A stretch of DNA of 64,000 nucleotides from sequence record PV659873.1; one strand, given 5' to 3'. Source of the DNA: Escherichia phage WPEC1. The translations under genes and the position numbers were made by a program. Shown piece after piece: positions 28,698-31,496 of the stretch. The notes beneath the pieces were generated by a model. That model worked only from the letters and a program-made list of their open reading frames with translations. It was not told the origin of the DNA and did no database searches. Numbering within the stretch: position 1 is the first letter of the stretch; each line of letters starts with the position of its first letter.

Positions 28698-31496
28698 ATT
28701 ATTTAGAAAAATGACAAATAATATTCCGTTGAGCAGTGCAACATTGCTTCGCTTCTATAAAGCATGGATTGCCAACTATCCTGAAGATTTTAACTGGTTC
28801 TTACAAGAAGGTCTTGACTTAAGTCGCATCTCTCCTTTCTACGATGCTGATGAGTCTTATTCGCTACTCTGGTAGTTGATCATGGTGTTGAAGTTGAGCG
28901 TCACATTTGGAAAGATGAGCCTCCTTTCTTTGATTTGGCAATAAGACTCATCAGCATCGTAGAAAGGAGAGATGCGACTTAAGTCAAGACCTTCTTGTAA
29001 GAACCAGTTAAAATCTTTGTCAAATTCTTCTTCAATTCTAGGGTCTTCTCCTACAGCCTCTTCCCATTTATTAAAAGGTGCACCCTGTAACAGAAATTTT
29101 AACTGGTTCTTACAAGAAGGTCTTGACTTAAGTCGCATCTCTCCTTTCTACGATGCTGATGAGTCTTATTAAATTTTAACTGGTTCTTACAAGAAGGTCT
29201 TGACTTAAGTCGCATCTCTCCTTTCTACGATGCTGATGAGTCTTATTGCATATTGCCGCCGTTGCCGCTATTGCTATTATAGGTACCTACTATGACACCG
29301 CGCGACCTTCCTCCTTACATGAGATCACCGCCGTTGCATCAGTTGGCGTGCTGTTTTACGTTGGTAAACGCTATTTATCACCAATGATTAACAAGCTGAC
29401 ACAGATATTGCCGCCGTTGCCGCTATTGCTATTATAGGTACCTACTATGACACCGCGCGACCTTCCTCCTTACATGAAATCATCACCGCCGTTGCATCAG
29501 TTGGCGTGCTGTTTTACGTTGGTAAACGCTATTTATCACCAATGATTAACAAGCTGACACCGAAAAATAAAAAAGCCCCTAACCTTTCGGAGAGGGGTGT
29601 TAAAAATAACAAGGAGGAGGGGCAAAGCCCCAAGAGAGGAGAGGGATCGCCGCCGTTGCATCAGTTGGCGTGCTGTTTTACGTTGGTAAACGCTATTTAT
29701 CACCAATGATTAACAAGCTGACACCGTGTTACAGGGTGCACCTTTTAATAAATGGGAAGAGGCTGTAGGAGAAGACCCTAGAATTGAAGAAGAATTTGAC
29801 AGAAATTTTAACTGGTTCTTACAAGAAGGTCTTGACTTAAGTCGCATCTCTCCTTTCTACGATGCTGATGAGTCTTATTGTTACAGGGTGCACCTTTTAA
29901 TAAATGGGAAGAGGCTGTAGGAGAAGACCCTAGAATTGAAGAAGAATTTGACAGAGATTTTAACTGGTTCTTACAAGAAGGTCTTGACTTAAGTCGCATC
30001 TCTCCTTTCTACGATGCTGATGAGTCTTATTCAAAGAAAAGAACCGTATGTATTGCGATTGATTCATGTATGTCTGGAGTTGGGTATGCGGTAGTTTCTT
30101 GTTTCTTAGCTTAATGGGACGATTGGGTTAAAGTAGCTAAAGAGTACGGTGTTTCACCATATATAAGAAATGCAGAAGAGGAGAATGAAGAAGTCAGCTT
30201 GTTAATCATTGGTGATAAATAGCGTTTACCAACGTAAAACAGCACGCCAACTGATGCAACGGCGGTGATTTCATGTAAGGAGGAAGGTCGCGCGGTGTCA
30301 TAGTAGGTACCTATAATAGCAATAGCGGCAACGGCGGCAATATGCTTATCATTGTGCAAAATACCTGGAGGCATTTTTATGATAATTTTAGCAACAATTC
30401 TTATGATGTTGATAGCCATTGCTATGAAAAGAACCGTATGTATTGCGATTGATTCATGTATGTCTGGAGTTGGGTATGCGGTAGTTTCTTGTTTCTTAGC
30501 TTATCATTGTGCAAAATACCTGGAGGCATTTTTATGATAATTTTAGCAACAATTCTTATGATGTTGATAGCCATTATGAGTCATTTGAAAAGGGGTGGCC
30601 TTCCTTGCCGTTGTTCTAAATATTATCATTACACTCCTGAACAATGGGCCTACCGTAATAAGACTCATCAGCATCGTAGAAAGGAGAGATGCGACTTAAG
30701 TCAAGACCTTCTTGTAAGAACCAGTTAAAATTTTTGTCAAATTCTTCTTCAATTCTAGGGTCTTCTCCTACAGCCTCTTCCCATTTATTAAAAGGTGCAC
30801 CCTGTAACAATAAGACTCATCAGCATCGTAGAAAGGAGAGATGCGACTTAAGTCAAGACCTTCTTGTAAGAACCAGTTAAAATTTTCGTCAAATTCTTCT
30901 TCAATTCTAGGGTCTTCTCCTACAGCCTCTTCCCATTTATTAAAAGGTGCACCCTGTAACAGTCAGCTTGTTAATCATTGGTGATAAATAGCGTTTACCA
31001 ACGTAAAACAGCACGCCAACTGATGCAACGGCGGCGATTTCATGTAAGGAGGAAGGTCGCGCGGTGTCATAGTAGGTACCTATAATAGCAATAGCGGCAA
31101 CGGCGGCAATATCTACAAAATTGCGCATATTTTATCCTCCTCATATCTGATCTTATCACAAAATGATATACAATTGCAAGCATGAAAAATAAAAAAGCCC
31201 CTAACCTTTCGGAGAGGGGTGTTAAAAATAACAAGGAGGAGGGGCAAAGCCCCAAGAGAGGGATCATAAAAATGAAGCATTTGGCGACGGTTGCACAATG
31301 GCGGTAAAATCCTTAAAGGATGGAATCATCCGTCAAGCTAAGTCGTAGACGAGTCTACAAAGAGGCCGTTGGTTCAGTTATTGCTAACTTAGAAAGTAGT
31401 GTAGAATATGAACCATTTACTATAAAGGGTTGCCAGAAAACTTTCTCTTTTACTCATGGTTTTCTCCTTCTCTCACACCTCTTCTGGTTGCCCTTC
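28688..31496. repeat. module array A2: about 36 abutting 73-78 bp blocks
   Basis: Head-to-tail blocks in both orientations, no constant spacer; blocks recur across arrays and match 16678-16985, 3037-3110, 26939-27008 and others. Confidence 0.9.

Follow-up and report, generated by a model that had tools for sequence, protein, structure and literature searches.

Apparent peptide-module arrays in the genome record of Escherichia phage WPEC1 are very probably concatenated assembly-graph edges

Long segments, arrays and open reading frames in the window

The window analysed here, 64,000 nt of sequence record PV659873.1 from Escherichia phage WPEC1, belongs to a Phapecoctavirus-like phage of E. coli. 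BLAST against the genome of phage anhysbys (NC_052656), which served as the array-free comparison genome and is the reference for the positions given below, resolves the window into 12 long collinear segments that come from distant anhysbys positions and lie in both orientations. Between the long segments are eight arrays, about 11 kb in total (Table 1), and each of their blocks can be traced to one of about 15 breakpoint sites, of which it is the flank of about 77 nt on the left, on the right or on both sides. The long segments end at these same sites, each of which has one to three closely spaced variable bases; the largest array begins and ends with 77 nt from the ends of the long segments that flank it. 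A different class of repeat, 22–43 nt long and present in up to 7 copies, lies between small ORFs of the early region and is unrelated to the 77-nt blocks. They are probably conserved intergenic regulatory repeats of the phage family, as the corresponding region of anhysbys has repeat_region features in its annotation.

All seven ORFs in which the first-pass annotation had placed a repeated peptide module are present in the window (Table 1). They are 62–93 aa long and open, and they carry in frame the peptide LQGAPFNKWEEAVGEDPRIEEEFD, two variable codons and the peptide FNWFLQEGLDLSRISPFYDADESY, the blocks on either side of the codons being called A and B here. Each ORF crosses two to four of the piece boundaries described below. 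The start codon (GTG, TTG or ATG) is taken from the upstream neighbour piece or created by the join itself, and the tail of the ORF at 29878..30114 derives from a different gene family, PHROG 35762. The suggestion that these ORFs might be expressed found no backing in their signals: a Shine-Dalgarno sequence is missing from five of the seven, the 10 promoter-like sites found are no enrichment over the 7.2 ± 3.0 expected, and a search for terminator-like sites made alongside returned none.

Table 1. Features of the 64,000-nt window, with positions counted from its first letter; arrays and A-B units are listed as very probable products of an assembly graph
Feature	Position	Strand	Description	Basis
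A-B unit, 152 nt	28941..29092	-	AAAGAT (Lys-Asp); core of ORF 28857..29138	
A-B unit, 152 nt	29727..29878	+	AGAAAT (Arg-Asn); core of ORF 29726..29920	
A-B unit, 152 nt	29879..30030	+	AGAGAT (Arg-Asp); core of ORF 29878..30114	
A-B unit, 152 nt	30658..30809	-	AAAAAT (Lys-Asn); core of ORF 30616..30810	
A-B unit, 152 nt	30810..30961	-	GAAAAT (Glu-Asn)	
A-B unit, 152 nt	41724..41875	-	GAAGAT (Glu-Asp); core of ORF 41718..41921	
A-B unit, 152 nt	56305..56456	-	GGAAAT (Gly-Asn); core of ORF 56302..56490	
A-B unit, 152 nt	57833..57984	-	GGAGAT (Gly-Asp), sole allele in independent genomes; core of ORF 57791..57985	
Chimeric ORF	16829..17131	+	parts of gp178 and gp193	BLAST map, translations, matches to two PHROGs
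Array	4782..5867		putative graph edges	repeat map, block-to-reference mapping, piece parse
Array, largest	28628..31579		about 35 concatenated putative graph edges between two long segments	repeat map, piece parse, block-to-reference mapping
Array	41493..42284		putative graph edges	repeat map, block-to-reference mapping, piece parse
Array	44947..45403		putative graph edges	repeat map, block-to-reference mapping, piece parse
Array	54686..56687		putative graph edges	repeat map, block-to-reference mapping, piece parse
Array	57519..59522		putative graph edges	repeat map, block-to-reference mapping, piece parse
Array	61748..62987		putative graph edges	repeat map, block-to-reference mapping, piece parse
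Array	63066..63678		putative graph edges	repeat map, block-to-reference mapping, piece parse
Parse example	57598..58141		pieces of 79, 78, 78, 152, 79 and 78 nt in a row	read from sequence, matched by simulation
Long segment	16908-23753		anhysbys 88097 to 81251	BLAST
Long segment	31501-41570		anhysbys 100214 to 110289	BLAST
Long segment	42208-45024		anhysbys 100206 to 97390	BLAST
Long segment	45327-54758		anhysbys 120710 to 111285	BLAST
Branch sites, examples	4935-4945, 5400-5410, 29320-29335, 29797-29806, 30495-30510, 45095-45105			
Short repeats, 22–43 nt	3483-3508, 4715-4736, 13447-13487, 14413-14437, 24091-24133, 27131-27153, 27399-27438			

The conserved gene behind the module

A and B had been described as two blocks fused by the arrays. 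They are not unrelated blocks: A-B is one contiguous stretch of the reference (anhysbys 88175-88022) that lies within gp193, the sequence of which reads MGIDIEWRMLQGAPFNKWEEAVGEDPRIEEEFDGDFNWFLQEGLDLSRISPFYDADESYCIYG..., so that A and B are adjoining parts of a single conserved gene. The unit corresponds to residues 9-60 of a conserved hypothetical protein of 108 aa (anhysbys gp193, YP_009985536; phi92 gp069; Stephanstirmvirinae) that belongs to PHROG 15453, and no Pfam domain was found in this protein or in gp178, discussed below. The 152-nt unit occurs in 109 phage records, and in all 106 that are not WPEC phages it is single-copy and contiguous. The native gp193 of anhysbys covers positions 1-108 of PHROG 15453; the array ORFs match it collinearly over positions 9-60 or 9-61, short of the full 108 positions.

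The ORF at 16829..17131, from which B was thought to derive as the N-terminal region of a native gene, is itself the composite one. It sits on the breakpoint 16907|16908, where reference position 81173 is joined to 88097, and consists of residues 1-26 of gp178 (MEITTEQALIDEGRKILEKYLGEIHK) followed by gp193 from residue 35 to its end, with AAT (Asn) as the junction codon in place of Asp35 of gp193. Its PHROG matches divide in the same way, PHROG 15398 at the N-terminus and positions 30-108 of PHROG 15453 in the rest. The structural picture drawn from the sequence was therefore the wrong way round: the chimera is the comparator, and A-junction-B is how the N-terminal part of a conserved gene naturally reads. 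This 100-aa ORF (window 16754-17131) looks normal and has a good ribosome-binding site; an artefactual join has put two unrelated conserved genes together in frame, and the product would pass ordinary gene calling.

The window holds exactly eight A-B units, and their junction hexamers conform to RRARAT. The hexamers AAAAAT, AAAGAT, AGAAAT, AGAGAT, GAAAAT, GAAGAT, GGAAAT and GGAGAT, which encode Lys-Asn, Lys-Asp, Arg-Asn, Arg-Asp, Glu-Asn, Glu-Asp, Gly-Asn and Gly-Asp, occur once each. Every cell of a 2 × 2 × 2 factorial is thus filled a single time, which is not chance and is the signature of an enumeration. The claim of eight peptide variants differing at exactly two residues holds for the strings, of which there are indeed eight; it does not hold for genes or for a real family. 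Nor do the two variable codons form a junction between blocks: they contain a cluster of three heterogeneous bases at which the assembly graph branches, and the 77-nt blocks are the k-mer flanks of this branch point in gp193.

Piece lengths, graph simulation and the order of the segments

The lengths of the repeated blocks are those of a graph built with k = 77. Maximal exact repeats in the window are cut off sharply below 77 nt and are most often 77-78 nt long; between this floor and the natural short repeats (43 nt or less) there are only two runs, of 72-73 nt, and some repeats exceed 77-78 nt by 1-4 nt, as chance extension predicts. We parsed the window by placing a cut wherever one repeated 77-mer ends and another begins. 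This gave 94 pieces with a minimum of 78 nt, 34 of them measuring 78-83 nt and 36 measuring 148-155 nt, and within the longer cluster 155 nt (12 pieces) is both the mode and the upper limit. In a graph with 77-mers as vertices, the shortest edge is 78 nt (k+1), the branch of a bubble made by a single SNP is 155 nt (2k+1), and clustered SNPs give slightly shorter middle edges. The ends of the long segments recur elsewhere for 77-78 nt, and the shared end blocks measured 75-78 nt in pairwise checks. The pieces accordingly show what concatenated de Bruijn edges show, namely a minimum of k+1, bubbles of 2k+1, sharing of the terminal 77 nt, and each edge written once.

The same conclusion was reached by simulation. 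From the eight RRARAT haplotypes, set in the sequence that natively surrounds them, we computed a graph whose vertices are 77-mers; it contained 20 short edges (6 of 78 nt, 6 of 79 nt and 8 of 152 nt), and all 20 are present in the window. The run of pieces at 57598-58141 consists of the tree edges, some branching and some merging, that three variable bases with the spacing Y-T-Y-Y should produce. Each of the 152-nt edges occurs once in the window and once in the related record of phage WPEC6, and at all ten multi-allelic sites each distinct haplotype occurs exactly once. An exact dynamic-programming tiling that allowed no interior repeated 77-mers left 80 residual k-mers. We attribute these to chance extension and to an ambiguity of 1-3 nt in where a cut falls, and on their account the argument rests on how the piece lengths are distributed and on the simulation just described. 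When long piece, bubble and long piece were chained by hand, no exact 77-nt joins resulted, because this chain skipped the intermediate short tree edges of the multi-SNP sites. At window 29408-29571 we also observed one haplotype of the site at reference position 49410 that carries a 3-nt insertion (GAAATCATCACC compared with GAAATCACC); indel variants were therefore kept as separate edges as well.

The order of the segments was examined against related records. Megablast of window 14000-22000 matched 224 phage records, the best match being Escherichia phage WPEC6 (PV763039; hospital wastewater, Thailand; host EC3.18), at 100% identity and with the matches spread over 17 separate places of this one record. 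The array region (window 28400-31400) gave partial, many-piece matches, and these only in WPEC4, WPEC6 and WPEC2, which come from the same host. The three records are 155-159 kb in size, relatives being about 150 kb, and none of them is collinear with the window across the arrays; a literature search found no paper describing WPEC2, WPEC4, WPEC6 or EC3.18. WPEC6 was the one of the three examined in full. Although the long segments of the window are 100% identical to WPEC6, they are cut, inverted and reordered relative both to WPEC6 and to more than 100 collinear relatives. Two places illustrate this: (i) WPEC6 runs unbroken through its positions 14327-27220 across anhysbys position 100210, where the window breaks and has one of the parts inverted. 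(ii) The gene of the minor head protein (anhysbys 120588-121004) is cut at reference position 120713 by the order of the window (window 45327, with pieces at 58374-58605 and 31342-31423), and it is intact in the WPEC6 segment 62264-86389, which is 100% identical to the window. The window order thus splits conserved genes that are left whole in WPEC6, which counts against the viability of this arrangement.

WPEC6 has defects of its own. It is mis-joined at the gp193 site, passing from reference 88095 to 111283 and then from 88097 to 78221 (WPEC6 5036-28214 and 28210-38085, respectively). Of the 94 pieces of the window, 57 are found in WPEC6 a single time each, at scattered positions and in both orientations; since the haplotypes and the 152-nt edges are also written only once, the two records look like different permutations of largely one edge set. 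Two further observations concern the WPEC6 record itself. Its start is duplicated at its end, the first 328 nt (1-328) being the same as 155000-155327, and a block of about 7 kb made up of the same debris (about 142000-149700) is annotated as dozens of hypothetical proteins of 30-50 aa. WPEC6 has 351 annotated features and anhysbys 286, and those of WPEC6 include runs of such 30-50-aa hypothetical proteins across the arrays.

Taken together, these results make it very probable that the window is part of a wrongly built "complete genome", in which de Bruijn edges of k = 77 were concatenated. The phage is Phapecoctavirus-like and infects E. coli, and its record is a sibling of those of WPEC2, WPEC4 and WPEC6. 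The sequence of events would be as follows. Reads with one to three closely spaced heterogeneous bases at about 15 sites would have made the graph branch there, and each branch point would have given short edges of k+1 to k+6 nt together with bubble edges of up to 2k+1 nt, all of them made up of the 77 nt to the left of the site, to its right, or both. The edges would then have been joined in arbitrary order and orientation with their 77-nt overlaps left untrimmed, and, once pasted in this way, they would mimic arrays of blocks of about 77 nt separated by "variable junctions". At the gp193 site, the three variable bases of RRARAT would yield the eight 152-nt A-B edges, each written once. ORFs run across the pieces since these carry gp193 coding sequence in frame, and the starts and stops of the ORFs would come from whichever piece happens to adjoin. 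Of the two possibilities that the first-pass annotation had left for the array ORFs, it is the second, that they are by-products of artefactual arrays, that the piece lengths, the shared 77-nt ends, the simulation and the once-only enumeration bear out.

We infer that the assembler was SPAdes-like and run at its default largest k of 77, and that graph edges, not resolved contigs, were exported and joined. For 150-nt reads, 77 is the default largest k of SPAdes, and the graph files of this program list edges in arbitrary order and orientation. Simple bubbles are normally popped by SPAdes; the retention of all eight alleles therefore points to unusual settings, extreme depth or the use of the raw graph.

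Source of the variants, alternatives and comparison with known systems

The micro-heterogeneity that seeded the branching is non-random. About 10 of the changes are G:C-to-A:T, 7 are T-to-G or A-to-C next to A/T runs, 2 are A:T-to-G:C and 1 is G-to-C. The G:C-to-A:T changes include all double and triple combinations at some sites, and three of the sites overlap GATC. T-to-G and A-to-C changes beside A/T runs are a pattern typical of sequencing error. The source of the heterogeneity could be sequencing noise at extreme depth, miscalls related to base modification, or real minor variants.

At the two variable codons, 10 of 10 independent genomes or contigs carry only GGAGAY (Gly-Asp). Six relatives from two genera (iGC_PHA_EC001, ZCKP1, ESCO13, Eryne, phi92 and anhysbys) have GGAGAT or GGAGAC, and a degenerate scan that accepted any RRARAY recovered one IMG/VR contig and three metagenome contigs, all four with GGAGAT. 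The non-native junction from B to A, for which one join was searched, is absent from IMG/VR. Because independent genomes carry GGAGAY only, the other seven peptide variants are known only from these assemblies; in them, one, two or all three of the G's of GGAG are changed to A.

The alternative that survives best accepts that the arrays are artefactual and takes the eight alleles as real: the lysate would have held a population with G-to-A changes at the three G's of GGAG in codons 34-35 of gp193, together with micro-variation at about 15 other sites, or else the miscalls would mark modified bases. Selection, site-specific mutagenesis or deamination are possible causes of such alleles. The branches of the graph must have had read support, the spectrum of changes is non-random in the ways just described, and among the genes of the phage family are several for DNA methyltransferases and glycosyltransferases, all of which agrees with this alternative. 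However, the allele of the independent genomes is invariably Gly-Asp, 7 of the other variable positions have the error-like pattern, and miscalls made independently at each base would, at very high depth, give a full factorial; we therefore regard real alleles as unlikely. We likewise give only a small chance to the broader proposal that the roughly 15 branch sites report a real property of the phage DNA, whether hypervariation in the lysate or base modification at GATC- or GGAG-type motifs that leads to miscalls by the polymerase or the base caller.

Far less probable is that the arrays are real genomic DNA that encodes a family of eight small peptide variants in a repeated module. The ORFs are open with the module in frame and the same blocks occur in three deposited sibling genomes, as such a family would have it, but the piece lengths of k+1 and 2k+1, the shared 77-nt ends and the once-only enumeration have no place in it, the order of the blocks differs between assemblies of 100% identical sequence, the ORFs span piece boundaries and mostly lack expression signals, and the module is single-copy in the other 106 genomes. 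Real tandem or mobile arrays were also considered and were rejected in favour of an assembly artefact. Least probable of all, to the point of being scarcely credible, is a dedicated system of diversification or rearrangement (a diversity-generating retroelement, a shufflon-type inversion or an engineered degenerate-codon library), which the combinatorial variation at two codons and the two orientations of the segments recall superficially. The annotation of the collinear relative anhysbys lists no reverse transcriptase or shufflon recombinase, and no recombinase near the block borders. Measured against the conserved allele, the substitutions (G-to-A, T-to-G and A-to-C) are not adenine-specific; the block borders share no crossover sequence and are set only by their distance of about 77 nt from the variable site; and the eight members of an engineered library would not all lie in a single molecule.

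The concatenated-edge explanation has consequences for the use of these data. The array ORFs are not genes, and neither a new peptide family nor a new repeat system exists here; the arrays are not a real genomic feature. The value of the finding lies in its warning about the public records, a problem of database quality that is worth flagging: at least three "complete genome" entries (WPEC2, WPEC4 and WPEC6) carry blocks of graph edges and are not collinear with their relatives. In downstream surveys, entries of this kind give rise to spurious clusters of proteins and to repeats, rearrangements and "hypervariable" genes that are false, and the test for lengths of k+1 and 2k+1 offers a quick way to spot records of this type.

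Compared with known systems, the arrays stand as follows: (i) With respect to the protein of PHROG 15453, each array copy is an internal fragment that has neither the native start codon and ribosome-binding site nor the C-terminal half, and at residues 34-35 seven of the eight copies differ from every independent genome checked. (ii) The likeness to diversity-generating retroelements and shufflons is one of appearance only, in that a constant module has a few hypervariable codons and segments occur in both orientations; the reverse transcriptase and the recombinase of those systems are absent from the annotation of the relative, there is no pair of template and variable repeats and no border repeat, and the geometry is set by k = 77. 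(iii) The edges of a SPAdes-type graph are matched closely, with a minimum of 78 nt (k+1), SNP branches of 155 nt (2k+1), neighbours that share one 77-mer, single occurrence and arbitrary orientation. The difference is that unresolved edges would normally be popped or left in the graph file, whereas this record strings them together with the long edges, head to tail, as a single genome.
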